From contig CAYWPI010000001.1 in assembly GCA_964460325.1 (NCBI GenBank), positions 108,551 through 162,320 on the forward strand: DNA of 53,770 bases. The letters are read 5' to 3'. A program made the translations under genes and the position numbers. The stretch comes from an uncultured Candidatus Saccharibacteria bacterium. Its GTDB lineage: Bacteria; Patescibacteriota; Minisyncoccia; UBA6257; 1-14-0-10-44-23. Positions within the stretch are counted from its first letter, which is position 1. Each line of letters opens with the position of its first letter. The notes beneath the pieces are model-generated. The model worked only from the letters and a program-made list of their open reading frames with translations, had not been told where the DNA came from and made no database searches. Shown here one piece after another: positions 15,704 through 53,770 of this stretch.

Positions 15704-15707
15704 CACC

Positions 15708-16951: not shown

Positions 16952-17053
16952 ATTGACAAAAATAAAAAAATCTGCTATTTAATAATACACGCTGCCTTTG
17001 GGCAGATAGACCTTTAAAAACCAGCGGGCTCAAGCCCAGGAAGGCAGGATTGG

Positions 17054-17749: not shown

Positions 17750-17766
17750 CCGCGAGCGCACCCCGG

Positions 17767-17812
17767 GGCCGCGGCGATGGGAACCAACCCACCGCCGCGG
17801 CCTCTTTTATTT
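17767..17812 (+). terminator. GC-rich intrinsic terminator closing the island
   Basis: GGCCGCGGCG...CGCCGCGGCC 10-bp stem followed by TCTTTTATTT. Confidence 0.65.
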
Positions 17813-17821
17813 ATTACGTAA

Positions 17822-35091: not shown

Positions 35092-35094
35092 ATA

Positions 35095-36525
35095 TTATGA
35101 CTCTATCACGATATGCTCCCGCTTGGTGATGCGAAGCATCAATGCAAGCAATATTGCGTAATAGAGTATCGCCAGAGAAAGAGGAAATGACTCGCTCGTA
35201 ACACCCACCTGAAAGCGCGAGAAAAAATGAATAACACCCAGCTCATAGGCAAGCAAAAAGCGCGCCGGCAAAGCAACAAGAAGCGCCAGATAACTTGAAA
35301 CAAGACTCGCAAGAAAAATAAACAGTCCGCCAAGCATCGTATAGGGAATGAGCAGTAAAATAAGTAGGTTGGGCATAAGAGAAATGACTGAGGCAAACCC
35401 GAAATACATGAGCGAGATAGGGAAAACGGCCACCTGCGCCGCCAGCGTCGCGCACAACGTTTTAACTATGAGAATAAGAAACTTGTTTTCAAGTTGCTTA
35501 ACCCGAACATAATGTTCAAAAATCGGCTGAAGATACACAATACCAAGCAAAGCAAAAAATGAGAGTTGAAACCCAATATCGAATACAAGCACTGCAGGAT
35601 TTATCACGGTCATGATAAAAGCAGCAACAGCAATCGCCGTATGGGTCACGTGCACCCTGCCGGTGCGCTCTGCGAGCAACACAATACCAGCCATAATTGC
35701 CGCTCTCACCACTGAAGCCTCGGCGCCAGTCATCAGCACAAAAAGCGTGATAGCAACCACCGTCAAAGGGAAGAGTGTTCGCCGAGCAAACCAGAATCCA
35801 AATAACAAGATAACGCCTTTAACGATAATAGTAACGTTCGTCCCGGAAAGCGCTACCATGTGCGTGGTACCCGTGATCTTCATTTGCTCTTGCAGCTGTT
35901 GCGAAAAAGCGGCGCTTTTGCCCAGAGTCAAACCTGTCATAAACGTTGCCGATTCTGGAGGCAAGGTTTTTTGAAAACTTTCCGCGATGCGATCTCGCAA
36001 CGAAAAGAGTAATGCCTTAAACCCATTACCCTCCCCAACCGCAAGGTGATGCACAACGGGAAACCGAAGCACGCCAACAACGCGATCACGCAAAAATCGA
36101 GCATCATCATTTGCAAGCTGAGTAAGAACGCCGATTGCTTCTATCTTGTCCCCATACGTAAAGGAAGGATATCGCTGAGTGTATATCTGCACAATGAACG
36201 ATTCAGGCTCGCTCATCGCGACCGTAAGCGTTTGCCGATCGGCATATAACTTTACCTTTTCAACTACGCCAACGTATCGCACCTCAGAAGACAAAAGGAG
36301 TTCAGGAGCTAGGGGCGTTCGCACCTGATAATAAAAAGAACCAACTAAAAGCATGAGTGAACAGAATGCCAATTGATAACGCCCCACAAGCGCAATCGCA
36401 AGCGCCACCAGGCCGCCGATCAATAAAGGAAACGCCATACTTACGCCAAGCGGCACAACGCTGGCGATCGCCACCCCAACCAAAAAGAACACTATCCCCC
36501 AGAATACTTTTTGATAATGCTCCAT
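35095..36525 (-). CDS. comEC: ComEC/Rec2 competence channel (DUF4131 + competence domains), lacking the MBL domain
   Basis: 476 aa polytopic membrane protein. Its stop lies 3 nt before the next ORF's ATG. Confidence 0.78.
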   Translation of the reverse strand: MEHYQKVFWGIVFFLVGVAIASVVPLGVSMAFPLLIGGLVALAIALVGRYQLAFCSLMLLVGSFYYQVRTPLAPELLLSSEVRYVGVVEKVKLYADRQTLTVAMSEPESFIVQIYTQRYPSFTYGDKIEAIGVLTQLANDDARFLRDRVVGVLRFPVVHHLAVGEGNGFKALLFSLRDRIAESFQKTLPPESATFMTGLTLGKSAAFSQQLQEQMKITGTTHMVALSGTNVTIIVKGVILLFGFWFARRTLFPLTVVAITLFVLMTGAEASVVRAAIMAGIVLLAERTGRVHVTHTAIAVAAFIMTVINPAVLVFDIGFQLSFFALLGIVYLQPIFEHYVRVKQLENKFLILIVKTLCATLAAQVAVFPISLMYFGFASVISLMPNLLILLLIPYTMLGGLFIFLASLVSSYLALLVALPARFLLAYELGVIHFFSRFQVGVTSESFPLSLAILYYAILLALMLRITKREHIVIES

Positions 36526-39744: not shown

Positions 39745-40320
39745 ATGCTTTCTTACAATGATCTTAAAGAAGGAGCGATGTTCGTTTATGAAGGCGCGCC
39801 ATACGAGGTGATTAAATTCGCTTTTCTACGCATGCAACAGCGCAAGCCCGTTGCTCAAACTTCTATTAAAAACCTTATCACGGGTAAGATTTTGGAACGC
39901 AATTTCCACATGAACGAAAGCTTCGAAGAAGTGGAAATTGAAAAAATTCCCGTTAAATATCTCTATAACAGCCGAGGTGATTATTGGTTCTGTCATGCCA
40001 AGGATCCAAGTAAGCGCTTTTCGTTGAAAGAAGATATCGCCGGCACCGCCGCTCATTTTACCAAACAGAACACCGAGGTGATTGCCCTCAAGTGGAACGA
40101 TCAAATTATTAACGTCATTTGGCCCATTAAAGCCGATCTTAAAATAACCGAAACACCTCCTGGCGAAAAAGGAAATTCTGCGAGCAATACCACTAAAGCG
40201 GCGACCCTTGAAACGGGCGCCGTCGTACAAGTTCCCATGTTCGTTAATCAAGGCGACATCATCCGGCTGAACACAACAACGGGACAGTATGTGGAGCGAG
40301 TCGAGAAGGGCAAAGAATAA
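39745..40320 (+). CDS. efp: Elongation factor P
   Basis: 191 aa with three-domain EF-P-like sequence (...VIKFAFLRMQQRKPVAQTSIKNLITGK...VQVPMFVNQGDIIRLNT...). Confidence 0.9.
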   Translation: MLSYNDLKEGAMFVYEGAPYEVIKFAFLRMQQRKPVAQTSIKNLITGKILERNFHMNESFEEVEIEKIPVKYLYNSRGDYWFCHAKDPSKRFSLKEDIAGTAAHFTKQNTEVIALKWNDQIINVIWPIKADLKITETPPGEKGNSASNTTKAATLETGAVVQVPMFVNQGDIIRLNTTTGQYVERVEKGKE

Positions 40321-40427
40321 CAGAAAGTGAGTAGTAGGCAGTATGTAGAAGGTAGTAGAGATACAGAAAGGAATCCTTTGCCTGTTTTGAATCTACTACG
40401 ACCAACTATATACTATCTTCTTCGCTT

Positions 40428-42497
40428 CTATCTTTCCCCCTCCAGCTTCTCCAGCTCCCAGATTTCCTGCCCCACCTTGCCCTCAATCACCTCCAGGTCT
40501 TGCATAATCTGCTGTTCGCGACGCTGTTCCTCTGTTGAAAGCTTGCGTTCCATTTTAATTTTTTTAATGAGCGCAAACTCCATTTCCATGTCATGACGCA
40601 ACAGAGCAAACCCACGACGGATAGACTCTTCTCCTTTACGCACCTCCTCCAAAAACTTACGATGCTCCCGTTTAATAACGCTCCAGTGGCGAATCACTAA
40701 AAATCCAAGCGTAAACACAATCGCCACCAAAACGCCAATAATGAGCAAATAGGCTAACTCATAACTGACACGGGCTGGTCCAAGCTTAAGCGCACCTGTG
40801 CGCACAACCATAGTCAGCTGCGAACTGGGCGGACTCATGGTCTCGCCTATTCTGCTCTGCGACCAAAGCACATAATTTCCCTTTGTAAGCGCCGCGGGGT
40901 GGTGATAAAACCACTCACCACTTTCATTCGAAACCGTTGCCGCCGAAAGCGTTTCACCAGTGGTAAGATTACTCCAATACACCACCACATCGGTTTGCGG
41001 CGTCACCGTTTCTCCACCCACATAAAACGTTTCCTCGGTGGTGAGATCGCGTGAAATTGTTGTTACGTGAGGCGGAGTCAACACCGATGTTGTGGTATTT
41101 GATTCATGAGCGGTCTGCGCCACTGTCACACTGCCGCCAATTCCCAACGAAAGAACAAAAAGCACAATGACGGCTATTTTGCCGTATTTTTTGCGATATA
41201 CTTTAAGCTCCTCAAGCTGCTTGCGAACCGTCTCGGGGACATTATTCTTCCGCTCATGCAAGCCAAGTCGCTTTGGCCAATGTTTAAGCCGCCAACCGGC
41301 AAATCCGAAAAAGAGCAACACAAGAAGTGCGACAAGCCAAAACCACATCCAGCTTATGGTAAACGCGCTGGTTATCCGCAACCCCTCGTTTTGCACTATC
41401 CCCAACAATGGACTCACAATCGCAAGTCGCCTGGTTACTTCACGATAGTTATATGCTTTATCATATGCCCGCAAAAGAACATCATAACTGCCCGGCTCAA
41501 GCGGGAAAAGGATATGCGGGCTTTGCACATCACTGAATAATTCTAAATCAGCTTCAGCTTCTGTAGTTCGCTGGGCAAGCGATATAACCTTCATCTCATA
41601 GTGATCAATGCCCGACTGCGCGTCAGTAGTAAAAAACTTTAGGACGGGCTGATCAACCGAGGTGCGCGCCGAAGGCAGAACTTCTATCTCAAACTCGGCG
41701 GGCGGTGTTTTATCTATATTAATTTGAAAATGAGTAACGCCGCCCCATACGCCATCTTGCAGGGAACGCACATGAAAGAAATACGTGCCGCTTTCAAGTT
41801 GAGTATAGGAAATTGTAGTTTGGGACCCTTCAGAAATGGTATCCGGCTTGAACAATGCGTCGTTATTCAAAATAAAACTATACCCTTCCGCGCCGGGCTC
41901 TCCAACCCATTCAATAACAGCATCCGTGTTTGAAAACCAGCGGGACTGATCGGGGTGCGTTGGCGAACTCACCGCCGGCCCAGCTGCTCTGGGCAACGTG
42001 GCGGCATATATCGCACCAGGAGTCCGCACAAGCACGTTCGTGCCCTGCCCATCGTTTGCTAACACTTTCGTGTCTGGCGTAAATTGCAAGAAAGAGCTCC
42101 CACTCGCTTTCACTCGAAAACGAATGGTAGTGATAAGACCGTTGGTGATGGTAATCCCTCCGGGAAAGCCACCCCGCATCTCTACCAAACCGTCTTTATT
42201 GTTAAACTTTGGCTGACCTGCCCAGATTTCAATGATAGATTTACCAGTGTTGGGCGAAACCACCTGAAGCTTATCTGCGGGGAATTCAAGCCCAAGCTCA
42301 ACGGCATTGATTTCTTGTCCCTGTGTATCTAATAAAATGGAAACATCAAATGTTTCACCAACTTCAAATGTTTGCGAGGCTGAAGAAAGAGAAAAAGTGG
42401 CAGCATGGGCAGAAGTAGGTAGTAAGTAGAGAGTAGTAAGTAGTAGGAAAGCAAAAACTAACCACCACTTTTTAATTTTTTGCATTTGGTTTTTCAT
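40428..42497 (-). CDS. Cohesin-domain polytopic membrane protein with a cytoplasmic coiled-coil tail
   Basis: 689 aa. Signal peptide ...LLLTTLYLLPTSAHAATF. Cohesin-like module (FEVGETFDVSILLDTQGQEINAVELGLEFPADKLQVV...). Ig/Fn3-like modules (THPDQSRWFSN...). Three internal TM helices. The C-terminus is charged and heptad-like. Confidence 0.62.
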   Translation of the reverse strand: MKNQMQKIKKWWLVFAFLLLTTLYLLPTSAHAATFSLSSASQTFEVGETFDVSILLDTQGQEINAVELGLEFPADKLQVVSPNTGKSIIEIWAGQPKFNNKDGLVEMRGGFPGGITITNGLITTIRFRVKASGSSFLQFTPDTKVLANDGQGTNVLVRTPGAIYAATLPRAAGPAVSSPTHPDQSRWFSNTDAVIEWVGEPGAEGYSFILNNDALFKPDTISEGSQTTISYTQLESGTYFFHVRSLQDGVWGGVTHFQINIDKTPPAEFEIEVLPSARTSVDQPVLKFFTTDAQSGIDHYEMKVISLAQRTTEAEADLELFSDVQSPHILFPLEPGSYDVLLRAYDKAYNYREVTRRLAIVSPLLGIVQNEGLRITSAFTISWMWFWLVALLVLLFFGFAGWRLKHWPKRLGLHERKNNVPETVRKQLEELKVYRKKYGKIAVIVLFVLSLGIGGSVTVAQTAHESNTTTSVLTPPHVTTISRDLTTEETFYVGGETVTPQTDVVVYWSNLTTGETLSAATVSNESGEWFYHHPAALTKGNYVLWSQSRIGETMSPPSSQLTMVVRTGALKLGPARVSYELAYLLIIGVLVAIVFTLGFLVIRHWSVIKREHRKFLEEVRKGEESIRRGFALLRHDMEMEFALIKKIKMERKLSTEEQRREQQIMQDLEVIEGKVGQEIWELEKLEGER

Positions 42498-42527
42498 ACT
42501 ACATACTACTGACTACATGCTTGGTTC

Positions 42528-43655
42528 TCACTTCTTCCCTATTATACCAGACGCCCAAACAAGCAACACAAAGAGAATTGCCATCCACACCCAGGCAGAA
42601 TAATTTTTCTGCGGACCAGGAATAAACTTTTCAATATAATTGCCCGCTTGATCATAAGCGCGCAAAGCAATAATCGAATACTCATCGGGCAGCGGTTGAG
42701 GAGAAAGAGCGGTAAACGGCTCCTCACTATCAATATGCACTTCATAATATTCAATTCCCGAAATCTGATCATCTGCCAAAAAAGTCAAAAACGACCGCCC
42801 TTCTGTTTCTGATATGCCTGCATTCTTTTTTACTTCCAGCCATACTGGATCTGAAACATCATTCATCAGTCGATAGCGCGAAACTACGTTGCTACCAACT
42901 TTTTTAACCGCAAAATACGTAATACCCTCCGGCACGTCATCTAACTTCAAATCCCCTTGCCACTGCGCCGATCCCCCTGGCCTGTCTGCAACATCATCAG
43001 GAACTTCAAGTGGATCCCTTGTTATGACATAACTATAGGAAGCCCCTGGCTCAAGCTCAAAATGAATCTGCGCCTTTGTGGCGGCATACCATTGCGTCTC
43101 GTCAGGGTGAGTCAGCGAAGTAATAGCCACATAATCTTTTGACGGCGGCAACACGCTCACCGCCGAACTCATCACATCAACGGAAACGCTCTTGCCGGTT
43201 CCATCAGCTAACAAAACTTTAACGGCCGATGGGACAAACGCAAGAGTCGCCCTACCCGGCAGCTCGCCGCGCAACGCAACGCGTGCCAATAAATGCTCTC
43301 CCGAAAGACCAGCGGGAATGCCACCAACCAATCGAAAACTTGATTTTCCTTTTATATTCGGTTGCTCAATAAAGACATCAATGGCCGAGCCAGCATTGTC
43401 AATTCCTCGTAAAGTTGCCGCCACGCCCGACAGAGATCCTTCAAGTTCAACCGCGTTAATACTTTCTCCTTCGGTATCGATGCGCACATCCACCAACGCT
43501 TCCTCACCGGGCATCAGCGAAATCTGTTGAGGGTAAAAATAGAGGGTGGCTGCTTGAGCAAAAGTAGGTAGTATGTAGAATGTAGTAAGCAGTAGCAGAT
43601 AAAATCCAAATCGCCCACTTCGCCCGATATGATTTTGTACATTCATGTGACGCAT
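42528..43655 (-). CDS. Cohesin-domain surface protein with a C-terminal TM anchor
   Basis: 375 aa. Signal peptide LLLLTTFYILPTFAQAATLYF. Cohesin-like module (ISLMPGEEALVDVRIDTEGESINAVELEGSL...). A THPDETQWY module. C-terminal TM helix. Confidence 0.62.
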   Translation of the reverse strand: MRHMNVQNHIGRSGRFGFYLLLLTTFYILPTFAQAATLYFYPQQISLMPGEEALVDVRIDTEGESINAVELEGSLSGVAATLRGIDNAGSAIDVFIEQPNIKGKSSFRLVGGIPAGLSGEHLLARVALRGELPGRATLAFVPSAVKVLLADGTGKSVSVDVMSSAVSVLPPSKDYVAITSLTHPDETQWYAATKAQIHFELEPGASYSYVITRDPLEVPDDVADRPGGSAQWQGDLKLDDVPEGITYFAVKKVGSNVVSRYRLMNDVSDPVWLEVKKNAGISETEGRSFLTFLADDQISGIEYYEVHIDSEEPFTALSPQPLPDEYSIIALRAYDQAGNYIEKFIPGPQKNYSAWVWMAILFVLLVWASGIIGKK

Positions 43656-43688
43656 ATATTTATTGTACTCCGACCTTGCTTTTTCCCC

Positions 43689-43722
43689 CTACTACGCACT
43701 ACATACTACCCTCTACCTACTT
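43689..43722. repeat. CTAC-rich intergenic element, copy 1 (CTACTACGCACTACATACTACCCTCTACCTACTT)
   Basis: Its first 28 nt are about 25/28 identical (hand alignment) to 48734-48761. It is also an inverted, imperfect copy of the signal-peptide-coding block at 43564-43597. Confidence 0.85.
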
Positions 43723-43725
43723 GCC

Positions 43726-44616
43726 TTAACTCTGCTGATACTTGACTGTCCACTCATACATCAAAATCGAAAAATCGACCAAGTTGACCGTTTGATCGCC
43801 ATTACGATCAACGCATCCGTTTGCAAGACCACTTTTGGGCAATGGCCGACCCCAGTAATACAACAAAATAGAAAGATCGGTGAGATTTATCGCGCCGTCA
43901 TTATTAAAATCGGAATTGGAACATGTGACCAGGTGCAATGCCAGATCGCTTGAAAACGGAGAAAGAATGCTTTGGGGTTCATATTGATAATTTGCTTTAT
44001 ACGAAAAATTGCCTGGATTAAACTCTTCGCGCGCCAACTTATACTCCCATCGCCCATTCGCACCCGCGACAGTCGTCAGCGGCGCGGTAAACGTATTGAT
44101 ATTATTAAAGACCCTTACCACGCTTGCCGGAAAAGCACTACCATACATAGTTAACGCTCCGCCTTCGGTGATGTGTTCATGCCCAATAGTCGGCGGGAGC
44201 GAAACCAAATCTATCTCCGCGACCGAACCTTCAGTCAACGTAAAAGAAATATTTACGGTCGGCGAAATCAAACCATAACGATCTCGGGCCCATAAACCAA
44301 AAGTTGCGCTGCCCGGATCAACCAAAAATAATCGTTCAAATCGACCAGAAGCCTCCGCCACCTCGGTGCCGATAACCGCTCCATCGCGCAAAAACGTTAC
44401 AATCGCCCCCGGATACGCAAACCCAGAAATACGCACATTGCCAACAGGCTGTGGGGCTCCCCCGCTACCACCCGACACTGGAGTCGAGGATCCGGGGATG
44501 GTAAGCATGATCGTTAAATCGGTCGCCCGGATGGAACCGATAAAAAGAATTTGAGCAAGAAGGGCAAGAAGAAGAAAAAAAGAAAAATAAATTATCCTGC
44601 TTTTTCTATATACCAT
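43726..44616 (-). CDS. Secreted Ig-like-domain protein with a C-terminal dockerin module
   Basis: 296 aa with a signal peptide and two EF-hand-like dockerin repeats, DFNNDGAINLTDLSILLYYW and DRNGDQTVNLVDFSILMYEW. Confidence 0.72.
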   Translation of the reverse strand: MVYRKSRIIYFSFFLLLALLAQILFIGSIRATDLTIMLTIPGSSTPVSGGSGGAPQPVGNVRISGFAYPGAIVTFLRDGAVIGTEVAEASGRFERLFLVDPGSATFGLWARDRYGLISPTVNISFTLTEGSVAEIDLVSLPPTIGHEHITEGGALTMYGSAFPASVVRVFNNINTFTAPLTTVAGANGRWEYKLAREEFNPGNFSYKANYQYEPQSILSPFSSDLALHLVTCSNSDFNNDGAINLTDLSILLYYWGRPLPKSGLANGCVDRNGDQTVNLVDFSILMYEWTVKYQQS

Positions 44617-44653
44617 GTAAGCATAAAGCCAAATAATCCGTCACAGCAGGGCA

Positions 44654-45601
44654 CTACTCAACAATACTGCCCCCGCGAAGCACCCTAAAGGCAAGAGCGA
44701 TGCGCCGACGCCCCCGAATAAGAAGTAATATCACAATAAGCAGCACAATGACGGCAATCGCAAGCATCTTCCATGGGATAACCCAAAACGTGGCAACTGC
44801 AGTCAGAGATTCGTTGGCAGAACCATAAATCGCCGTCATGGTCGCGGTGTATTTACCGTACATATACTTTACACCCCATGGAAAATCGAACTTACGCACG
44901 CTTTGCGGCAAAATATTACTTTGCGGAATATTGATTGTTCCCGCCTCTTTGCCAAACATATTAGTGATCGTAATATATCCGCGCGGTTTAAGATGCACAG
45001 AGCCGTCGTTTTTAAAACGAAGTGTTAAATCAACAGGACCAAATTCTGAAAATGAGGGCGCGCCAAATTCCGCCACATACATTTTTTCAGTTATTTCACC
45101 GCTTACATCCAACAAGAGAAGAGCGCCGATGCGCTGAGCAATACCCACTCCACCTCCGGCGGCACCAGGAGCAACCGAGGCCAGGATCGAGCCGTAATGA
45201 CCGCCTGGTTCTGCATTTTCAGGAACCGCAATAGTAAACTCGACCGTTCGCGAAGTGCGCGGCTCAAGTGTAAACGTATTCGTATCAAGCGTCACCCAAG
45301 ATTTCAGAGAAAAACCAGTATCCGGCGCCTCTTCGTCGATCACCACCTGCCCCGCTTCACCCGTCGGTGAAAAATTCTCAACATTGACCACGATATTCAC
45401 TGTCTCGGCGCTGTCATTGTAAATACGAATGACATTTTTAAGCTCATCGCCAGGATTGGCAGAAAGCTCAAATTTGACTGGCGAAACCGAAACCGCATGA
45501 GCAACCAGCGAAAAGGCAAAGAAACCAACTAACCCAAGAGCAAGAAGCCCGATTCTGAAGCCAATTCCCTTAGAAATACTCATATAGTGTAAGAGGAGCA
45601 C
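44654..45601 (-). CDS. CscA-like (DUF916/DUF3324-type architecture) surface protein with a C-terminal TM anchor and basic tail
   Basis: 315 aa with a signal peptide, VSPVKFELSANPGDELKNVIRIYNDSAETV, beta-sandwich-like halves, and a C-terminal TM helix plus RGRRR. Confidence 0.55.
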   Translation of the reverse strand: MLLLHYMSISKGIGFRIGLLALGLVGFFAFSLVAHAVSVSPVKFELSANPGDELKNVIRIYNDSAETVNIVVNVENFSPTGEAGQVVIDEEAPDTGFSLKSWVTLDTNTFTLEPRTSRTVEFTIAVPENAEPGGHYGSILASVAPGAAGGGVGIAQRIGALLLLDVSGEITEKMYVAEFGAPSFSEFGPVDLTLRFKNDGSVHLKPRGYITITNMFGKEAGTINIPQSNILPQSVRKFDFPWGVKYMYGKYTATMTAIYGSANESLTAVATFWVIPWKMLAIAVIVLLIVILLLIRGRRRIALAFRVLRGGSIVE

Positions 45602-45651
45602 CGTAAGCTATGTCATTATTGCCGCTTAACAGACGCTCGTATAAGTGAGTT

Positions 45652-46893
45652 TTAGAAGGTTGGCGTGGCAATATAGGTAATGGTATTGCTATAATCACCT
45701 GCCGCTTGAACGGCGTCAAAGGACATCTTATACACAATGCGATTGGTTTGCGCAGAGACTGGCGAACTTGTACTTATTGGCTGAGCGGCAACATCTGCTC
45801 CGTTACCCGGATCGCACACCGCATCTGCGCCTGTACACGGGAAACTATTAAACTCCGTCGCAGTCGCAAAAGCCGAGTTGCATTGACTGCCCGAGCAGGT
45901 ATAGCCAAAACCGTTGACCGTTGCCGTATCCCATGCGGTTGTCGTGCCCGCGGCGATCACCTCGGTACAATCACCACCATCACACGTGGTGTCGTCAAGT
46001 GTACTGGTACCAGAAAGCAAACTGGTATTTTCTTGAACTGAAATCGTATATCCACCCGCAGCATTTGTGCCCACCGTTAAATCATGGCAACCTTTATAGA
46101 ACGTTTCGGCCGACAAGCCAGATGAACCAAATGGCACCGTACTTGTGGTAGTTGTAATTGCCGTTGCCGTCCCGCCCTGCGAACAACTGCTTGAGGCGAC
46201 CCCGGCAATGCTAAAAGTCAAACTCTCATCAACTGAAACCGAAACCGTGACTCCTTCAATGACTGCAACAAGCGCAGAACCAGCATCGGCCGCCGCATTA
46301 CCCGTAAACGAAATCGCAACGTCATAGATATCGGCAGTTCCAGCCGCAGCCACCTTGGCCGGGTTGGTAATAAACGAATCACCAGTAGAGCTTGCGGTTG
46401 CGATTGAGCCAATTTCAATAATAACGCAAGCACTTGCGCCAACATATGTTGCTGCGCCCGTCGGCGTTGAAATAGTCAGCGTGTCGGTAGAAGTTGCAAA
46501 CGCGACACCCCATACCGAGGCTGTTGCGGTTGCAGCCAAACCCGCGTCCACGGCACCCGAACAATCACTGTTGGCATCAACTGCTACGTCTACGTCCTCA
46601 AATGTGATAGTCGGATCAATCGTAAACTGGTCCAGCGATCCCAATGTGTCAAAGTTAAGCACAATCGTATCGCTCTCATTAATAAGCGTTGGCACCACAA
46701 ATTGGATGGTCCAACTTGATGTCGCCGAAGGAGCAGAGTTAGTCAAGGTTGCTCGCACCGAAGAAAGCGAGGCAGCCTCAACTTGCCTGGTGGCGACATA
46801 AAAACCACCCGCCACCACTACCAGCGAGATAGAAAGAATAGTTACCAGAGTCACGCGGCCTTTTTGCGCTACATTTTTTATTAATTGTTTCAT
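45652..46893 (-). CDS. Thr/Ala/Ser-rich secreted protein with a WxL-like C-terminal domain (candidate major surface or fibre subunit)
   Basis: 413 aa with an N-terminal TM/signal segment and a low-complexity T/A/S/G body. The Cys-rich C-terminal domain ends in AVQAAGDYSNTITYIATPTF and is homologous to the C-terminus of the giant ORF. Confidence 0.55.
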   Translation of the reverse strand: MKQLIKNVAQKGRVTLVTILSISLVVVAGGFYVATRQVEAASLSSVRATLTNSAPSATSSWTIQFVVPTLINESDTIVLNFDTLGSLDQFTIDPTITFEDVDVAVDANSDCSGAVDAGLAATATASVWGVAFATSTDTLTISTPTGAATYVGASACVIIEIGSIATASSTGDSFITNPAKVAAAGTADIYDVAISFTGNAAADAGSALVAVIEGVTVSVSVDESLTFSIAGVASSSCSQGGTATAITTTTSTVPFGSSGLSAETFYKGCHDLTVGTNAAGGYTISVQENTSLLSGTSTLDDTTCDGGDCTEVIAAGTTTAWDTATVNGFGYTCSGSQCNSAFATATEFNSFPCTGADAVCDPGNGADVAAQPISTSSPVSAQTNRIVYKMSFDAVQAAGDYSNTITYIATPTF

Positions 46894-46989
46894 AAATCAA
46901 CAACTCAAATGAGTTTAACTAATATTTTATAATCCCCCAGAAATTGCGCGAATGTGTTTACGCACATTCACTCCTTGTCTATTGAATAC

Positions 46990-46998
46990 ATTATACCA
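46990..46998 (-). promoter_or_regulatory. Extended -10 promoter element (TGGTATAAT) upstream of the 413-aa gene
   Basis: The minus strand reads ...TTTACTGTGGTATAATG..., about 95 nt upstream of the ATG at 46893. A GAATGTG/CACATTC hairpin lies in the leader. Confidence 0.5.
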
Positions 46999-47089
46999 CA
47001 GTAAAAAAACGTAAAAATGAGAGGGAGGCGGGGGTGTGGATAACTAATCAGCATGAGGATCCTACGATGTGCCAAATATCAGCTCATCA

Positions 47090-48295
47090 TTACTTCTTTC
47101 TGCGGCGACGAGAACGCATCTTGCGATAAGTTTTGCGCGAGAAAACAACCATAATCGCAGCAAGGATGCGGCGACTAAACTGCTTAATAAAGATGGTAAT
47201 AAGAGCCACAATACCAGCGACAATCAGCATGAGCTTCCATGGCATCACCCAAAAACCAACCGTTTCAGAAATAGTCGCCCCACCTGCGAATCCTGCGCCG
47301 GCCGCACTGTTTATATCTGGATACTCTAAAATAAGGGTTGCCGTATATTTACCAAGATATGCGTTGTCTTTGAAATAATTAACTACACCCCTTAAAAATC
47401 CCCCTTCTTTTTCGTTTGTGCCCAGCGGGATATCAAGCGAACGAATGCGACCGGGTAATAAATAGCGACCAGGTAATGCGATATGCTTCACTACCTCGCC
47501 CTGCCAGTTACGAATCTCTAGTCGTCCCATTGCCTTAAAATAAAACATGCCCGTGTTGCGCACCTTGGCGACCAATGTTTTGGCGACATCCTCCAAAATG
47601 CCCGCCTCAGCAACCGGCACAATACTACCCTGCGCAGAGGTGCGTTCATCCGTGAGTCCTAGTGAAATAATCTCGGCTGCATATCCGCTTTTTAGATCAT
47701 CGACTGAAAAAAATGGTACGCGGAAAAAGAACAATAAATTCATCTCCGGCACAAAGCGCGGACCAGTGCCTTCAAAATAATGCCCAGGCAAAATAGCTTG
47801 CAAACGCATCGTCACCAAATACGTTCCCGCCGGCACGTCTTTGGGCGGCACCACGCGAAACACTAACTCTTGCTCATCGGCTGGATTGAGAATGAAATCA
47901 TAGCCTGTTGTAAGCGGTTCAAGAATGGTTCTCTTTGCATTATCCGGGTCTGGCAATTCAAGATAAAACCACTTGGTTGCATCAATCTCATCATCCTCTG
48001 CGCTGATATATTCAATATCTTCTTCGGTGTTTTCTTTTAAGTTCCATAACGAAAGCTGCAGATGCATAGGCAACGGCAATTCGTTTGAGTTATTAAATAT
48101 CACCAACCGGTCTTGATACGTAGTACCAGGTAAGATTTCCGCCTCGAAAAGGCTTTTGTTGGTAGAAAAACCCAGCCCAGCTGCGTGGGCTTGGGGAATA
48201 GGTAGTAAGTAGTATGTAGAAAGTAGTATAGAAACAAAAAATACAGTGCGTAGTAAGTAGTGGGTAGTATGTAGCAAAAGACGGAACATAATCAT
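47090..48295 (-). CDS. CscA-like surface protein, paralogous architecture to 44654-45601
   Basis: 401 aa with signal peptide ...ILLSTYYLLPIPQAHAAGL, FEAEILPGTTYQDRLVIFNNSNELP, and a C-terminal TM helix plus RSRRRRKK. Confidence 0.55.
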   Translation of the reverse strand: MIMFRLLLHTTHYLLRTVFFVSILLSTYYLLPIPQAHAAGLGFSTNKSLFEAEILPGTTYQDRLVIFNNSNELPLPMHLQLSLWNLKENTEEDIEYISAEDDEIDATKWFYLELPDPDNAKRTILEPLTTGYDFILNPADEQELVFRVVPPKDVPAGTYLVTMRLQAILPGHYFEGTGPRFVPEMNLLFFFRVPFFSVDDLKSGYAAEIISLGLTDERTSAQGSIVPVAEAGILEDVAKTLVAKVRNTGMFYFKAMGRLEIRNWQGEVVKHIALPGRYLLPGRIRSLDIPLGTNEKEGGFLRGVVNYFKDNAYLGKYTATLILEYPDINSAAGAGFAGGATISETVGFWVMPWKLMLIVAGIVALITIFIKQFSRRILAAIMVVFSRKTYRKMRSRRRRKK

Positions 48296-48666
48296 GATCT
48301 TTTTTCAAAATTCGCAATAATTTTATTCAGCATGCTCATAACTTCATGTAGGAGATTGTCAACCCGTACAAGATCGTCTTTCTCAAGAAAGCCAAGATCA
48401 GTTGATAAGATAAGTTGCGTTTCTAATTCAGAACCCGAACCATAAGCGATCCTGAGAAATTGGATCTTTTCTTTAACCGACTTACGCCTAAATCCTTCTG
48501 CAACGTTAGAAGGAATAGATATTACCGCGCGACGTATCTGACTAGTTAGCCCAAATAACTCAGCCCCTGGGAAAGCATCGGTTAATCGATACACCAAAAC
48601 AACGAGCTCACGAGATCTCTGCCACACAATCAAATCCTGATATGTTTTTATTTTTTCCTTTTCCAT
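48292..48666 (-). CDS. Four-helix-bundle protein (23S rRNA intervening-sequence protein family)
   Basis: 124 aa reading YQDLIVWQRSRELVVLVYRLT..FP..E.FGLTSQIRRAVISIPSNVAEGF.R.S.KE...FL.IAYGS..ELETQL.... It has an ATGA overlap with the downstream gene. Confidence 0.85.
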   Translation of the reverse strand: MEKEKIKTYQDLIVWQRSRELVVLVYRLTDAFPGAELFGLTSQIRRAVISIPSNVAEGFRRKSVKEKIQFLRIAYGSGSELETQLILSTDLGFLEKDDLVRVDNLLHEVMSMLNKIIANFEKRS

Positions 48667-48733
48667 ATATTTGCACCTCTACTATATTCTACTCACTGCA
48701 TACTACTCACTTTCTCCCACCCCCTTCCCGCTC

Positions 48734-48768
48734 CCTACTACTCACTACCTACTACCCTCTACATACTT
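48734..48768. repeat. CTAC-rich intergenic element, copy 2 (CTACTACTCACTACCTACTACCCTCTACATACTTC)
   Basis: It lies immediately 3' of the giant ORF's stop (48771), the same position as copy 1 relative to the dockerin gene's stop. Confidence 0.85.
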
Positions 48769-48770
48769 CT

Positions 48771-51700
48771 TTAGAATTTCGGCGCAACAATGAAACGAAT
48801 AGTCGTCTGATAATCCCCCGCCGCCTGAGCGCGATCGACTGAAACCCTATAAGTCATAGTGGTCGCCTCACCCGTTACCCGACCGGCAGATGCGGCCACC
48901 TCATCGCCCGGCGTGCTAGTTGAAAAGGCGGCAAACTCATTTGTGGTAAATTGCGTAATATCCGCGTCATCCGTGTTATATCCAAAACCACAATCACTAT
49001 TATTGATGCAATTAGTAGTCCACACGGTTGGCGAGGCGTTAGTTCCCGTCCAGTTGGCGATTGTCGTGGTCGCGCCAACACGCGTAAGCAGGTCAGTTGC
49101 ATAACCCGTAAGACTATATCCAAACTCACCATTAGTAGTAACCGTCAGCGTATTAGTCGCGCTTGCAGTAAAGGTGTTTGTGTCGCCCAGAGACAAGTCA
49201 ATGGAAAGCGGGCTGATACTAAACGACAAACTCGGGAATGCCCAACAGAAGGCGTTGTTCCCCCGGTCTACGGAGTTGGCATAACTCACACTGATATAGG
49301 TGCTAGTTGAAACACAGCCGGAATCTTTCACCGTTACATATCGCACGTCTTCAGTGCCTTGGTGATTAATAAGCCACTGAGTGCCAGATGAGTTGGAATC
49401 AATCGTGATAAGGTTGCCCGCAGTGCCGGTAAGAGTCAGTAAACCATTTACGCGAAACGCTTGCGTACTTGTGGCAAACACAAACGGCTTATTCCCGGTT
49501 TGCGAGGTAAAGTTCCAGAATGTCAGTTCACTGGAGGTGGCGCCACTGATGGTTGAGGTGGCCGTGGTATCAAAGGTCACCGTACTGCTCCCTAAGGTAA
49601 CCGTGCCGCTGCTGTTAAAGTCTTTGGCAAACGTAAGGCCAGTGGTAGACGCCGTGAGCGCGCCAGCAGAGGCGATGGCCACGTTGCCGTCAACATCGAG
49701 TGAGTAATTGGTCACGCTCAAGGTGCCGGCAGTAAGTGTCAAATCATTAGTACTGGTGGTGTTGCCTTCAAGCACAAAGGTTTCGGTACTGGTGGCAATT
49801 TGAAGGTTCCAATAGTTTTCTGCCTGCATAGTGGTGTTGCCACCGGCGTTGTTACCACTATACACAAAGGTTGAGCTTGCAGAAGCAAGATCGGCGCTTG
49901 CCGAATTGGCAACCAATTTAAACGGATCACCAGTAGTGCCCGACAGTGTCCAAGTGCGATTGCCAGCATTGAGCACAGCATTGGCGCCAGCTCCTAAGCC
50001 GCCGTTAACCGTCAACTCCCCCGCGATAGCAAGATTGCCAGTGCCTGACGTTTGAGTCGTGAAGGTATAAGTGCCTGCGGTGGAAGTGGCAACAGTAAAG
50101 ACAAGATCGTTAAACGTCCAATCCCCGCTTGTTGAGCCAAAGCCTTGCGACGAAGTGGCGGCCAGGGTGACAGTGAAGCTTGCGTTAGTGAGCGAGATAA
50201 CACCTCCTGCGCCCGTCACGTCACCGTTATACACCTGGATTGAAGAGGTGCCATTACTGTTGTTGAGTGTGCCAGCAGTCATCGTAAGGTTACCGTCAAC
50301 CGCGCTTGAATCAAGCCCAACAACCATATCCGAGCTGCTCGGCGACCAACTCCCACCGACGCCATTGAAGGTTACATTGCGGAATGCTCGACTCCCTGGG
50401 TTAATCGAAAATCCAGTCGTAGTTGCAGTGAACGTAGTCACTTGACCAGAATCCGTGGTGAATGAACCATTCGCAGCATTATGCCAGTCACCGCCAATAA
50501 AAACCCAATTGGACCCAACCTCTAATGTAGAGGTTGATGATCCCCAAACAATATCTCCCCCAGGCTCGCTTGGTAAGGCGCCATTTTCAAGAGTAAGATC
50601 CGACTGGCTACCTAAGGTGGTAAACGTATCTCCTGGCCAAATATAAAGACCCCAGTCAGCGTCTATGGAAACCAATTGGGCACCAGTACCGAAATGAAGA
50701 TCATTATCACCGCACGCAAGACCAATTGTGTAGTTACATAATTCGAGATGAGCATCTGTAAGAGGCCCGGTATTTTCATGCCGCACAATTAGATAATTCT
50801 TGTAGATATTTAGCCCAGCGAGATTCCCCGAGCTTGAAGCAAGAGTTACTACAGCTCCGGTTCCATTTCCTCCTCCGTTATTATTCATCCAAACTGTTAG
50901 AAGCGTCCCCGAGGAAACTCCAGCTACTGAAGTAAAGGTGAAGTTTCCGCTTGCGTCCGTACTCGTTGTGTATCCTGTCGTTCCATTAACTGCTAATTTT
51001 ACGCTCGAGGTTGTAGTGGTTATCCCCTGATCAGAATAAACCGTTCCAGAAACAGTAATGCCGGTAGCCGGCGTGCCATACGTTGTAATCTCGGGCACAT
51101 AAAGCGGCGTTGAAGTCGCACCATTAGCATCAACAATACGGAAGCAATAGGCAACGCCGGGATTAGTGCCTGTATCCCGAAGCGCAAACTGCCACACACC
51201 ATCAGAACCAGAAGTCAAAGCACTGCCAAGATCTGGATATCTGCCTCCCCCACGGGTGAAGTTGCCAAAGGTAGTACCGCTGGCGGAAAAGTTATTCTGT
51301 TCAACATGGGTTAAGCCCCTAAGAAGATCAGTGGTGTGCGTGGCGTCATCAAGACCGCCGTGGATGAGCGAGTCATGAGCTCGACCAGAGAGGTCGGTGA
51401 ATCGAATGACTCCTGTTGAAGTGGCCACATCAGTATACGTCTCACCAGAGTAGGCCACGTCACACGTGCCTGATTTTTCAGCCACTTGGAGCTTAAATGT
51501 TTCCGTGGAGGCGATACTGCGGGAAGCGTGGACAGTAGAACGGAGGATGAAGGGGGTGGAGGTGACTGATGGAGTGGTGGTGGCGGTATTAAGCGCCGAC
51601 GAGGTGGCGATATCAGTCTGATACGCGCGAATACTCCAATCCGAATCCGCATTATCAACAGTTGACAGATAAATAATACGCGACCCATCCGCAGCTATCC

Positions 51701-53770
51701 CATTATTTTGAGAAGCAGCGGCTGAACCATTTGAGCTTGTAGCATACACAAGACTCAAATCGGAAAGATTCCTCTTCTCCAAACGATTATTACTTGTACC
51801 CGATATCCCAACCACATACATATAAGAACCGTCAATTGCTATGTTATAAGCTTCGTCCGTAGCACCAGGATTACTGGTTGTTGAGGTGACAAGCGCCAAA
51901 TCGGATAAATTACGCTTTTCAATGCGCCAATTAACATCATCTTGCTCACCGACAACATACATATATTGGTTATCAATCGCAATCGAATACGCCCGGTCAG
52001 TAGTGCCCGGATTACTAGTTGTCGAAGCAACAGAGCTTAGATCCGACAATAATCTCTTTTCGATACGCCAATTAACATCATCTTGAAAGCCGACTACATA
52101 CATATAAGTACTGTCAATCGCTATTCCTCTCGCAACATCAGTCGTCCCAGCATTTATAGTGACACGGCTCCCAACTAAATCTAAGGTTGATTTATCACGT
52201 TTTTGAATGCTCCAATTTACTTCGCCTGCAGTGGATCCAACAGCGTAAAGATAGGTAACATCCTGAGCGAGGCTGTGAAAATACTCTAATCCACTTACAT
52301 CTTCCGTGAATGAGTCAACAAGAGCACCGTCAGATAGGTTGCGTTTTTCGATCCTAAAATCATTATTTGACGGCTGTGCCATGCCCGCAACATATATATA
52401 CGCATCATCGACAACAACAGCTCTTGCACGATCATTCCCACCAGGGTCACTTGAGGTTGACCAAATAATACTTCCATCTGAGAGCGATCTCTTTTCAAAG
52501 TACCAATTATTTTCTCCGCTTATTGCAGCAGAACCAGCAAGATACACATAACCTTGATCTATAGCCACTGTAAGTCCAAGATCTGCCACGCCAGGGTTGC
52601 TTGATGTTGAAAAGACCACACTTGGTTCACTACTCGTCGCAAACCATCGATAACCAGAAACATAAGGGCTACCCATATTGAGCGTTGGATATCTAGTGTA
52701 AGTTCCCAACTCAGTTCCATCATCTTCCACCATGCGGAAGTAGTAGTTGGAAACGGTGGTAGTGGCGATATCAAGGGAGAAGTCCCACTCCATGTCTTGG
52801 CCCACCGTTGCGGCTGTTGGGTTGGCATCTGTTGGATTATCCTCTTGATAACTCTGTTTAGCATCAGAGCTTGTGAGAAGGTTAGAAGTGATAGCCGCGT
52901 CGTCTGCGGGGGTGGTGTTGTTATAGAAGCGAATATCGCCAGTTGAGGTGGCGACGTCGGTCCAGCCATAACCGGTGTAGTAGACGGTAATTTTAATATG
53001 ATCAACTTGCAATTGAGCCGGACAACTTCCACCAGCGCATGTGCCGCTAAGCGCGACTCCAAAATCACTTGAGTTGATATCACTCGCAGTCCAGGTTAAC
53101 CCCCATAATTCCGTCGAAGAACCATACGAATCCTCACTCTCTCCTCCCCAAAATAAACTCGTTGAAGCCATCTCTGTCCCCGAAATTGATCCACCCTTTA
53201 CTATCTTTACAGAATTATCAGACGTCGCCGCACCTCCTGCCCTCTCAAAAGTCACCACGATACCGTCAATGGTCGCATCTGACGGAATACTAAATCCGAA
53301 ATTGGTTGCCTTTAAATAATTTGAAATTACCGTGCTTCCGACAGTCGCAGTTGCGTTAAGATTATCGCTCGTAGTCGCATTCCCTGGATTGGTCCATGCA
53401 ACAGTCCCTGTACTAGTATCATTCACCACCGTTGCAGTTGAAGTCGGTCCCACAGTAACGCTCGATACCGAGCTCGTTGCAAACTGGAGCTTAAAGGCCT
53501 GTGTGCTTGTTGAAAGTGTACTCCCGCCGACTGTCACGTTCATACGCAACCGAGCTTGGCCAAGAGTAGTGGTTGTATAGCTACTGTTTTCAGATGCTAA
53601 CGAGCTCCCTGGCTGAACGCCATCGGCAGCCGCATACCAACGGTACTCGTTTTGAGTGAAACTAACTGGCGGACTATAGGTCGTAATCTCGGGCACATAC
53701 AGCGGCGTTGAAGTGGCACCATCGGTGCGCACCACACGGAAACAATAACTCGCCGCCGGAGCTGCTGAAT
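48771..53770 (-). CDS. Giant secreted surface protein (>1654 aa; N-terminus beyond the window end). It contains repeated beta-sandwich modules, a ~7-blade beta-propeller, a beta-helix-like region and a WxL-like C-terminal domain.
   Basis: The frame remains open from 53735 to the window edge, and the upstream residues continue a repeated module (..CFRVVRTDGATSTPLYVPEITTY). 47-aa repeats read NWRIEKR.LSDL..V.S.TSNPG..D.A..IAID..YMYVVG. The C-terminus is ...RAQAAGDYQTTIRFIVAPKF. Confidence 0.85.
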   Translation of the reverse strand, partial: SAAPAASYCFRVVRTDGATSTPLYVPEITTYSPPVSFTQNEYRWYAAADGVQPGSSLASENSSYTTTTLGQARLRMNVTVGGSTLSTSTQAFKLQFATSSVSSVTVGPTSTATVVNDTSTGTVAWTNPGNATTSDNLNATATVGSTVISNYLKATNFGFSIPSDATIDGIVVTFERAGGAATSDNSVKIVKGGSISGTEMASTSLFWGGESEDSYGSSTELWGLTWTASDINSSDFGVALSGTCAGGSCPAQLQVDHIKITVYYTGYGWTDVATSTGDIRFYNNTTPADDAAITSNLLTSSDAKQSYQEDNPTDANPTAATVGQDMEWDFSLDIATTTVSNYYFRMVEDDGTELGTYTRYPTLNMGSPYVSGYRWFATSSEPSVVFSTSSNPGVADLGLTVAIDQGYVYLAGSAAISGENNWYFEKRSLSDGSIIWSTSSDPGGNDRARAVVVDDAYIYVAGMAQPSNNDFRIEKRNLSDGALVDSFTEDVSGLEYFHSLAQDVTYLYAVGSTAGEVNWSIQKRDKSTLDLVGSRVTINAGTTDVARGIAIDSTYMYVVGFQDDVNWRIEKRLLSDLSSVASTTSNPGTTDRAYSIAIDNQYMYVVGEQDDVNWRIEKRNLSDLALVTSTTSNPGATDEAYNIAIDGSYMYVVGISGTSNNRLEKRNLSDLSLVYATSSNGSAAASQNNGIAADGSRIIYLSTVDNADSDWSIRAYQTDIATSSALNTATTTPSVTSTPFILRSTVHASRSIASTETFKLQVAEKSGTCDVAYSGETYTDVATSTGVIRFTDLSGRAHDSLIHGGLDDATHTTDLLRGLTHVEQNNFSASGTTFGNFTRGGGRYPDLGSALTSGSDGVWQFALRDTGTNPGVAYCFRIVDANGATSTPLYVPEITTYGTPATGITVSGTVYSDQGITTTTSSVKLAVNGTTGYTTSTDASGNFTFTSVAGVSSGTLLTVWMNNNGGGNGTGAVVTLASSSGNLAGLNIYKNYLIVRHENTGPLTDAHLELCNYTIGLACGDNDLHFGTGAQLVSIDADWGLYIWPGDTFTTLGSQSDLTLENGALPSEPGGDIVWGSSTSTLEVGSNWVFIGGDWHNAANGSFTTDSGQVTTFTATTTGFSINPGSRAFRNVTFNGVGGSWSPSSSDMVVGLDSSAVDGNLTMTAGTLNNSNGTSSIQVYNGDVTGAGGVISLTNASFTVTLAATSSQGFGSTSGDWTFNDLVFTVATSTAGTYTFTTQTSGTGNLAIAGELTVNGGLGAGANAVLNAGNRTWTLSGTTGDPFKLVANSASADLASASSTFVYSGNNAGGNTTMQAENYWNLQIATSTETFVLEGNTTSTNDLTLTAGTLSVTNYSLDVDGNVAIASAGALTASTTGLTFAKDFNSSGTVTLGSSTVTFDTTATSTISGATSSELTFWNFTSQTGNKPFVFATSTQAFRVNGLLTLTGTAGNLITIDSNSSGTQWLINHQGTEDVRYVTVKDSGCVSTSTYISVSYANSVDRGNNAFCWAFPSLSFSISPLSIDLSLGDTNTFTASATNTLTVTTNGEFGYSLTGYATDLLTRVGATTTIANWTGTNASPTVWTTNCINNSDCGFGYNTDDADITQFTTNEFAAFSTSTPGDEVAASAGRVTGEATTMTYRVSVDRAQAAGDYQTTIRFIVAPKF

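Follow-up and report, generated by a model that had tools for sequence, protein, structure and literature searches.

The minus strand at positions 40428–53770 of the stretch of DNA analysed here (53,770 nucleotides of contig CAYWPI010000001.1 from an uncultured Candidatus Saccharibacteria bacterium, hereafter the window) carries an operon that probably encodes a surface filament resembling the Pam pilus of bacteria of the Candidate Phyla Radiation (CPR). Its subunits would be joined by donor-strand assembly, and its base subunit would be tethered by a cohesin–dockerin pair. Eight co-directional open reading frames (ORFs) were called, all on the minus strand and closely spaced, in agreement with the initial annotation of this DNA:

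48771 to the window end (53770), minus strand: giant protein, at least 1665 aa
48292–48666, minus strand: ORF of the 124-aa protein
47090–48295, minus strand: ORF of the 401-aa protein (chaperone A)
45652–46893, minus strand: ORF of the 413-aa protein (pilin)
44654–45601, minus strand: ORF of the 315-aa protein (chaperone B)
43726–44616, minus strand: ORF of the 296-aa protein (dockerin adaptor)
42528–43655, minus strand: ORF of the 375-aa protein (cohesin anchor 1)
40428–42497, minus strand: ORF of the 689-aa protein (cohesin anchor 2)

The spacers, taken in order of ascending coordinate, measure 30, 70, 37, 50, 196, −4 and 104 nt. Reduced to its parts, the order runs from a tip protein through chaperone, pilin, second chaperone and dockerin protein to one to five cohesin proteins.

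Two filaments have been solved from the CPR parasite Ca. Mycosynbacter amalyticus (bioRxiv 10.64898/2026.03.03.709456). In that account, the Pam pilus is built of two-domain pilins, PamA and PamB, each C-terminal domain receiving the linker of the subunit that follows; the chaperones, PamC and PamD, resemble FimC/PapD and retain a membrane helix at the C-terminus; the tip subunit, PamT, has a single domain; and PamR, with an N-terminal strand, two fibronectin type III (FnIII)-like domains and a membrane helix, is the proposed terminator and anchor of the pilus (bioRxiv 10.64898/2026.03.03.709456). The preprint does not mention WxL, DUF916, cohesin or dockerin (bioRxiv 10.64898/2026.03.03.709456).

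Recurrence of the gene order in related genomes

A chaperone profile was searched against species-representative genomes. It recovered 533 encoding stretches, the best 80 of which were analysed with 10-kb flanks. ORFs were labelled with hidden Markov models (HMMs) built first from the window proteins and then refined in successive rounds on the locus ORFs, and the labels were checked independently with Pfam and PDB.

The search for the gene order in related genomes, proposed along with the initial annotation, found it on many contigs; it is therefore not unique to this one. Its recurrence in dozens of CPR species rules out a chance neighbourhood and upholds the view of the locus as one operon-like unit. 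Both the 68%-identical relative L001 and the Uhrbacteria locus L003 have the same order between differing flanking genes. The distant loci L005–L007 keep pilin, chaperone and giant protein, without cohesin and dockerin. Downstream of the chaperone, an ORF with two immunoglobulin (Ig)-type domains, the adaptor, was present in 75 of the 75 loci with at least 1.2 kb of downstream sequence; it carried a dockerin in 71 of them, at a median gap of 63 bp from the chaperone. One to five cohesin ORFs were found in 65/70 loci with at least 4 kb downstream. Upstream, a pilin-domain ORF was found in 46/63 loci (at least 1.5 kb upstream) and a giant protein (at least 550 aa) bearing the same domain in 24/46 (at least 6 kb upstream).

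A second layout consists of a chaperone, an adaptor of about 410 aa (pilin N-terminal-domain-like plus dockerin), a protein of about 570 aa, a cohesin of about 180 aa and a cohesin protein of about 400 aa (L062, L064, L065, L067, L070, L072, L077, L079, L083, L085 and L087). No separate upstream pilin-domain gene was detected in this layout, and its longer adaptors carry the pilin N-terminal-domain-like part ahead of a donor-type strand.

By record titles, the closest relatives belong to Uhrbacteria, Veblenbacteria, Spechtbacterales, Terrybacteria, WWE3, CPR2 and Paceibacterota. Some operon-bearing contigs are titled Gammaproteobacteria, Pseudomonadales, Aminicenantia, Dehalococcoidia or Clostridia (L022, L023, L029, L031, L043, L047, L073, L086 and others); these non-CPR titles probably reflect mis-binned or mislabelled metagenome-assembled genomes.

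A pilin-type domain and a recurring candidate donor strand

The features of the pilin, of the related end of the giant protein and of the adaptor's N-terminus are the following:

46261–46773, minus strand: pilin N-terminal beta-sandwich (AlphaFold2 model), preceded by a signal peptide
46222–46260, minus strand: pilin linker with the candidate donor strand VTVSVSV (conservation)
45655–46221, minus strand: pilin C-terminal acceptor domain (NF058581 match)
48774–49313, minus strand: C-terminal pilin-type domain of the giant protein (BLASTP and HMM), without a donor-like strand ahead of it
44497–44517, minus strand: N-terminal strand LTIMLTI of the adaptor, after the signal peptide

The initial annotation proposed that the 413-aa and giant proteins share a C-terminal domain, and likened it to WxL domains. 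The first part stands: BLASTP aligned the two with 32% identity over 99 aa (E 3e-7), and iterated HMM searches gave envelopes of 197 aa in the pilin and 180 aa in the giant protein. The second part fell. PF13731 (WxL) matched none of the window proteins and, even at E<=1, none of 33 relatives, and a 90-sequence profile of the domain matched no PDB chain at E<=10 (assuming that the WxL chain of 9i25 is in that sequence set). By sequence, the shared domain is thus not a WxL domain; its terminal motif has Y or F where WxL domains expect W.

The family that the pilin relatives did match, and the sole one matched consistently, was NCBIfam NF058581 (CPR_Pam_pilin_C). The window pilin matches it over model positions 2–148 of 148 (E 4e-5, 23.6 bits); 22/33 close relatives and 50/77 representatives at 50% identity match this family too, with a best E of 1.3e-11. 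Pfam had no match for the pilin, the giant, the 375-aa or the 401-aa protein. A word-indexed protein search returned 61 pilin relatives, and an exhaustive profile search 4430, 2861 and 926 clusters at 50% identity for E<=1e-3, 1e-10 and 1e-30, respectively.

The AlphaFold2 model of the pilin (mean predicted local distance difference test score, pLDDT, 85.5) consists of beta domains at residues 41–211 and 225–413 with a low-confidence linker between them. Conservation among 78 family members is highest in the linker (VAxIxGVxVSATVxExLxF), in two strands from the core of the C-terminal domain and at the C-terminus itself (QxAGxYxNTxTYIATPTF). Model and conservation profile both fit the description of Pam, in which the donor strand and its groove are likewise the conserved parts (bioRxiv 10.64898/2026.03.03.709456). 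We read the shared domain as a distant homologue of the Pam pilin C-terminal domain, lying below the NCBI membership threshold, because of the family-level matches to NF058581, the two-domain model and the pattern of conservation. The PDB copy used yielded no Pam structure, and sequence searches of the PDB gave nothing usable for the pilin and the chaperone or for their family profiles.

Inspection of the adaptors revealed a strand similar to that of the pilin linker. The consensus of the mature adaptor N-terminus is [IV][ST]-V-S-A-T-[IV], against V-T-V-S-A-T-V in the pilin linker, and a Pro/Gly-rich spacer follows it in the adaptors. The comparison rests on column statistics and a reciprocal profile-window scan. 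With a 7-column profile, the adaptor strand found the pilin linker as its best match among 407 windows (score 13.0, next best 5.3; z 5.5), and the reverse scan of the pilin linker against the adaptor was the reciprocal best (z 4.5). A strict donor-strand regular expression matched just 5/89 adaptors and was too strict.

Membrane-anchored chaperones related to WxLIP

The 315- and 401-aa proteins are full-length paralogues (E 9e-13), each with a signal peptide, a C-terminal transmembrane (TM) helix and a basic tail:

47177–47233, minus strand: TM helix of chaperone A (TM scan), followed by a poly-basic tail
45104–45493, minus strand: domain 1 of chaperone B, DUF916/WxLIP_PGBD (Pfam and model)
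44780–45082, minus strand: domain 2 of chaperone B (model)
44717–44773, minus strand: TM helix of chaperone B (TM scan), followed by a basic tail

Chaperone B scores 32.6 bits against the Pfam family WxLIP_PGBD/DUF916 (PF06030; cut-off 27.3), which also matches 35/39 of the chaperone relatives. Chaperone A, a WxLIP/PapD-like two-domain body with insertions, is placed in DUF916 solely through its paralogy to the 315-aa protein. The second domain expected of CscA-type proteins, DUF3324 (PF11797), had no sequence match in the window or in the 39 chaperone relatives; one faint precomputed match lay in the giant protein of a relative. The AlphaFold2 model of chaperone B (pLDDT 88.6, predicted TM-score 0.72) shows two beta-sandwich domains and a C-terminal helix. 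Its best Foldseek matches were Enterococcus faecium WxLIP (9i1y, E 1.4e-12) and WxLIP with a long WxL protein (9i25, E 1.9e-12), at TM 0.58–0.60 and over about 260 columns spanning both domains; CfaA, CsuC, FimC, Caf1M and PapD followed (E 1e-10 to 1e-8). The label "CscA-like", which the first reading gave to both proteins for their layout, is right, because WxLIP is the best fold match and PF06030 is found in 35 of the 39 relatives, and it is compatible with the description of the Pam chaperones.

Among the best-kept strands of the chaperone family is GALLLLxVxGE, which follows a Gly-rich loop and is a candidate G1-like donor hairpin. For the Firmicute counterparts, AlphaFold2 predicts that a DUF916 hairpin inserts into the WxL domain, which is the logic of strand complementation (Hassan et al., PMC10599100). 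The pairing of giant and chaperone genes is conserved across related loci, and chaperone A is presumed to be the partner of the giant protein.

These matches also speak for a different machine, a non-filamentous complex of the WxL/Csc type in which each client is held one-to-one on the membrane by its own WxLIP-like partner through strand insertion, as has been proposed for the WxL clusters of Firmicutes, with no polymer formed and with the cohesins and dockerin serving as extra display sites. The closest solved structure to chaperone B is indeed an enterococcal WxLIP, in one entry complexed with WxL; DUF916 passes its Pfam threshold; each client gene has its own partner gene behind it; and a small client, a large client and a DUF916-TM protein mirror a typical WxL cluster (PMC10599100). 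We nevertheless consider this arrangement unlikely. The client domain is not WxL by sequence and is related to the Pam pilin domain, whose filaments were solved by cryo-electron microscopy. Moreover, the best-conserved element of the small client is the strand between its domains, and that strand recurs at the N-terminus of the adaptor, a recurrence not easily accounted for unless subunits donate strands to one another.

Dockerin adaptor and membrane cohesins

The last three genes have these features:

43759–43914 (residues 235–286), minus strand: type I dockerin of the adaptor
43140–43559, minus strand: cohesin module of anchor 1 (paralogy and family support), preceded by a signal peptide
42606–43139, minus strand: middle beta domain of anchor 1
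42540–42596, minus strand: C-terminal TM helix of anchor 1 (TM scan)
41982–42410, minus strand: cohesin module of anchor 2 (PF00963), preceded by a signal peptide
41403–41981, minus strand: middle domain of anchor 2
41301–41357, 41121–41177 and 40692–40748, minus strand: TM segments of anchor 2 (TM scan)
40764–41120, minus strand: second extracellular Ig domain of anchor 2, related to the adaptor Ig domains
40431–40676, minus strand: charged C-terminal tail of anchor 2, perhaps a coiled coil, which is a guess from its sequence

In the adaptor, the N-terminal strand is followed by a Pro/Gly-rich linker, two Ig domains (Big_6-like) and the dockerin. The latter had been recognised in the initial annotation and was borne out by Dockerin_1 (PF00404; 30.7 bits against a cut-off of 22.9). 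The family consensus holds two Ca-binding repeats, DLNxDGxVNLxDFSILLYxW and DINxDGxVDLxDFSIMMYxW, and Pfam detects Dockerin_1 in 64/75 and Big_6 in 52/75 of the adaptor orthologues.

The proposal of two membrane proteins with cohesin modules also holds. The 689-aa protein matches PF00963 (24.6 bits, cut-off 24.1, a marginal score), Y_Y_Y and Big_13. The 375-aa protein has no Pfam match of its own; it is a paralogue of the former over about 340 N-terminal residues (E 9e-30), and both have TM helices. At the family level, PF00963 matched 34/103 cohesin-family ORFs (best E 7e-9), and the family profile matched the solved anchoring-type cohesins 5m0y, 2bm3, 3kcp and 2b59 at E 2e-3 to 8e-3.

Dockerin and cohesin tend to be present together. 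Six loci with at least 4 kb downstream have no dockerin; L005, L006, L007, L037 and L074 are also without cohesin genes, and L086 has one. The two-by-two table of adaptor dockerin against locus cohesin reads 63/3/1/5 (Fisher p 2e-5, uncorrected for phylogeny). The dockerin-less adaptors of L005, L006, L037, L074 and L086 end in a membrane helix, some with a basic tail in addition, which is a PamR-like layout.

These observations bear on a second alternative, in which the cohesin and dockerin genes merely adjoin a pilus operon and form an independent, cellulosome-like display scaffold for cargo encoded elsewhere. Non-cellulosomal cohesins and dockerins are widespread. A locus can hold up to five cohesin paralogues, yet has only one dockerin gene within 10 kb, which leaves room for other dockerin proteins elsewhere. 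Yet the dockerin gene stands directly behind chaperone B in nearly all loci, at the short gap given above and amid varied flanks; dockerin and cohesin tend to be present or missing together; adaptors alternate between a dockerin and a TM helix; and the adaptor has a pilin-type strand. As first remarked from the sequence, a Pfam scan finds no glycoside hydrolase in the locus; neither this class nor a carbohydrate-binding module (CBM) turned up there or among the scanned neighbouring genes of the window, and the locus thus does not qualify as a cellulosome. A separate scaffold is in our judgement improbable.

The giant protein

The reading frame of the giant protein is open to base 53768, at the window edge; the protein of at least 1665 aa is therefore N-terminally truncated. 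It is rich in T, S and G and has the Pam-pilin-like acceptor domain at its C-terminus. The residues ahead of that domain are NAFCWAF/PSLSFSI, compared with VTVSVSVD/ESLTFSI in the pilin. In related loci the orthologous first gene encodes from about 370 to more than 4500 aa and always ends in the shared domain. Pfam, NCBIfam and PHROG gave no match for the giant protein; PHROGs likewise gave none for four other proteins, and so offered no way to link the giant protein to the "tail fibre-like" protein of the preprint.

Two kinds of internal repeat were found. Nucleotides 51065–51149 and 53663–53747 are a duplication with 78% identity, encoding the peptide ...CFRxV..GATSTPLYVPEITTY. About seven repeats of some 45 aa (NWRIEKRNLSDLxLV...YMYVVG) occupy residues ~370–720 (window 51600–52660) and may form a beta-propeller.

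In the cohesin-less loci, ORFs beside the giant gene or fused with it contain Phage_int_SAM_1-type matches (L005:14993-15514, L006:13886-14356 and L007:3534-8021). This is the N-terminal domain of phage integrases, and unexpected for a surface adhesin.

Proposed assembly and its weighing

In the assembly that we propose, all components would be exported by Sec, their signal peptides being seen directly in the sequences. The membrane-anchored 401- and 315-aa chaperones would hold the acceptor domains of the giant protein and the pilin by inserting a beta-strand or hairpin. The giant protein would sit at the filament tip, because it has the acceptor domain and is missing the donor strand. Pilins would add below it, the linker strand VTVSVSV of each entering the acceptor domain of the previous subunit. 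The 296-aa adaptor, whose mature N-terminus bears a pilin-type strand and which has no acceptor domain, would close off the last pilin and stop growth. Its dockerin would then bind, with Ca2+, the cohesins of the 375- and 689-aa proteins and so fix the filament to the membrane. The single membrane-anchored terminator PamR would here be split in two, a dockerin adaptor and separate cohesin anchors. Surface attachment or host contact, that is, adhesion to a host cell or a surface, is the most reasonable function.

We hold a wider proposition more tentatively, at somewhat less than even confidence: that donor-strand pili with hypervariable giant tips form a large class across the CPR, their base being a dockerin terminator seated in membrane cohesins, and not a membrane helix, a sortase or an usher.

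Several points weigh against the proposed filament. We infer polymerisation, chaperone–client complexes and cohesin–dockerin binding from genes and single-chain models. The 23.6 bits of the pilin on NF058581 are well under the curated cut-off of 55, so that by NCBI's measure it is not a member of the Pam family. The pilin model drew only generic two-Ig adhesins from Foldseek (ClfA/B, SdrG and RbmA), with no Pam or WxL protein among the 50 matches listed. The N-terminal strand of the adaptor is only moderately conserved; a 12-residue linker HMM had no significant match in adaptors, and the window strand LTIMLTI fits the pattern with letters that differ from the consensus. Cohesin support per protein is marginal, by the Pfam score, the share of matching ORFs and the PDB E values alike. 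The 80 loci are the best matches to chaperone B and are phylogenetically related, and the counts and the Fisher test are to be read as drawn from non-independent samples. Finally, promoter and terminator scans were at chance level and are uninformative on co-transcription.

Such near- or below-threshold scores (cohesin, NF058581), together with the many Foldseek matches that beta-sandwich folds yield, could suggest generic Ig-like or beta-sandwich secreted proteins with convergent or spurious similarities and no common machine, a very improbable explanation that is largely refuted by synteny and family-level statistics, namely the consistent family-level matches, a gene order kept in dozens of species and the 2861 pilin-family clusters at E<=1e-10.

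Comparison with known systems

The filament proposed here shares with Pam its occurrence in CPR bacteria, the lack of an usher, two chaperone paralogues of unequal size with a C-terminal TM helix, and a terminal subunit with an N-terminal strand and two Ig/FnIII-type domains (PamR being compared by its description). It differs in having one pilin gene instead of PamA, PamB and PamE, and a giant (>1665 aa) multi-domain tip candidate instead of the single-domain PamT. Its terminal subunit ends in a dockerin, not in a TM helix, and is thus not a PamR-type anchor; one to five cohesin-TM proteins are added. The preprint stresses Saccharimonadia and Microgenomatia, whereas the relatives found here are titled as other CPR groups, on the evidence of record titles only.

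With WxL/Csc clusters the locus has in common a membrane-anchored partner, whose first domain (PF06030) is homologous and which gives the best structural match overall, a C-terminal TM helix on that partner, a pair of clients of which one is small and the other large, and strand insertion as the predicted mode of binding. In contrast to those clusters, the client is without a WxL signature or PF13731, PF11797 has no sequence match, and LPXTG proteins were not seen. Attachment of WxL proteins to peptidoglycan is considered non-covalent, polymerisation is not known for these proteins, and no cohesin or dockerin is reported for them.

Chaperone-usher pili (Pap, Fim, CFA/I, Csu and Caf1) resemble the proposed system in the chaperone fold, with the Foldseek E values given above, in a tip adhesin that ends in a pilin domain (FimH/PapG-like), in a donor-strand subunit, and in a terminator that donates a strand and does not accept one (PapH/FimI-like). 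The proposed system differs from them in lacking an outer membrane, in having its chaperones anchored in the membrane, in drawing its donor strand from an internal linker instead of an N-terminal extension, and in having two-domain pilins. Neither an usher-like gene nor a Pfam match to PapD (PF00345/PF02753) was found in the window locus; the fold alone is similar.

Cellulosome anchoring, in which the type II cohesins of SdbA, OlpB or anchoring scaffoldins bind the dockerin of a scaffoldin, offers a parallel in the duplicated Ca-binding dockerin, the cohesins and the tethering of a large extracellular assembly, and anchoring-type cohesins are the best PDB sequence matches. Here, however, the anchors are integral membrane proteins (not surface-layer homology or sortase-linked ones), each with a single cohesin, there are no enzymes or CBM, and the cargo would be a pilus base subunit.

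The initial annotation suggested that the whole might be an undescribed apparatus. That judgement needs dividing: the core pilus idea was already published in 2026, as the Pam pilus, and the cohesin–dockerin coupling is undescribed in the searched literature, which contains no paper linking cohesin–dockerin pairs to a pilus or to CPR surface structures, nor one linking Pam chaperones to WxLIP.

The IVP gene and heptad repeats

The 124-aa protein belongs to the four-helix-bundle family 23S_rRNA_IVP (PF05635, E 6e-37; TIGR02436). This family was found in 16 of 88 sequences scanned (87 loci and the window), at intergenic positions that vary by lineage, and the gene is absent at this site in the closest locus, L001. 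It is probably an inserted cassette outside the machine. In some loci it is called in one ORF with a chaperone or cohesin (e.g. L003:7904-9340, L003:13502-15040 and L018:11975-13483). Such scattered and fused genes suggest a mobile cassette, or read-through gene calls.

A heptad repeat, (GTAGNNN)n, surrounds this gene and recurs at both cohesin genes:

48202–48762, minus strand: heptad inverted repeats around the whole IVP gene, the 3' arms lying in the signal-peptide codons of chaperone A
42419–42516, minus strand: heptad hairpin of cohesin anchor 2, in which an arm in the 5' untranslated region (UTR) pairs with signal-peptide codons (z −2.7)
43568–43716, minus strand: heptad hairpin round the start codon of cohesin anchor 1 (−57 kcal/mol, z −5.2)
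42408–42464, 43565–43609 and 48199–48291, minus strand: heptad-encoded signal-peptide motif

The outer IVP stem of the window (48185–48775) is present in both the minimum free energy and the centroid folds (z −1.9). L014:9490-9965 has the same arrangement of IVP within a stem of about 35 bp (z −5.2), its far arm lying in the signal-peptide codons of a cohesin gene. The stem resembles the stem-loops of 23S rRNA intervening sequences, yet sits inside a protein-coding operon. Within the 53.8-kb window, runs of at least three heptads are confined to these sites; across 1.37 Mb of related loci, L014 alone has them.

The hairpins at the cohesin genes enclose both start codons and may serve in translational control or be left over from IVP cassettes. 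Pairing between 5' UTR and signal-peptide codons is not general across the related loci (mean z about −0.4). Both cohesin anchors and chaperone A, otherwise unrelated, have in common the signal-peptide motif LL(L/S)T(T)x-Y-(L/I)-L-P-x-x-A-(H/Q)-A. This motif is encoded by the heptad, and the nucleotide repeat therefore appears to double as signal-peptide codons.

A diversity-generating retroelement was considered because IVP resembles Avd, and was rejected. Matches to Avd were weak (E 0.003 and 0.024), no template/variable repeat pair was found in a repeat search of 40000–53770, and the scanned ORFs include no reverse transcriptase, a window-wide search for it not having been made.

Neighbouring genes

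The operon is flanked by housekeeping genes, encoding elongation factor P, a double NTP-transferase, MnmA, ComEC, a metallo-beta-lactamase-fold protein and a class II aminoacyl-tRNA synthetase. ComEC and a metallo-beta-lactamase-fold gene lie a few kb from the operon in the window (34207–36525) and in three related loci (L001:20842-21248, L005:173-2857 and L006:4439-6710), and ComEA is additionally near it in the two distant loci L005 and L006. The pilus operon and these DNA-uptake genes may be in conserved synteny.

Further away, positions 14000–18000 of the window form a G+C-rich island (0.54–0.58, against about 0.47), possibly a horizontal acquisition, with genes for a protein of the inositol-monophosphatase family and for an AAA_33 kinase-like protein. 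Neither the Rfam nor the tRNA scan of the window gave a match.

Implications

Much of bacterial diversity belongs to the CPR, whose cultivated members live attached to other cells; to our knowledge, little of their attachment machinery has been described. For Pam, structures come from a single Saccharimonadia species, and the type of locus analysed here shows that a related system is widespread, with a cohesin–dockerin module conserved in most of the loci examined. It provides a testable hypothesis for how a pilus could be anchored in a cell without outer membrane or sortase and, if true, would give non-cellulosomal cohesin–dockerin pairs a concrete function.

The structural link between the chaperones and WxLIP opens a new angle on the WxL surface proteins of enterococci, listeriae and lactobacilli. 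If the wider proposition on CPR pili is correct, the DUF916 chaperone would tie together three systems hitherto regarded as separate, the WxL/WxLIP clusters of Firmicutes, the Pam pili of CPR bacteria and the chaperone-usher pili of Gram-negative bacteria, and WxL clusters may also use strand complementation or polymerisation. The variable giant tip proteins are candidate determinants of host specificity.

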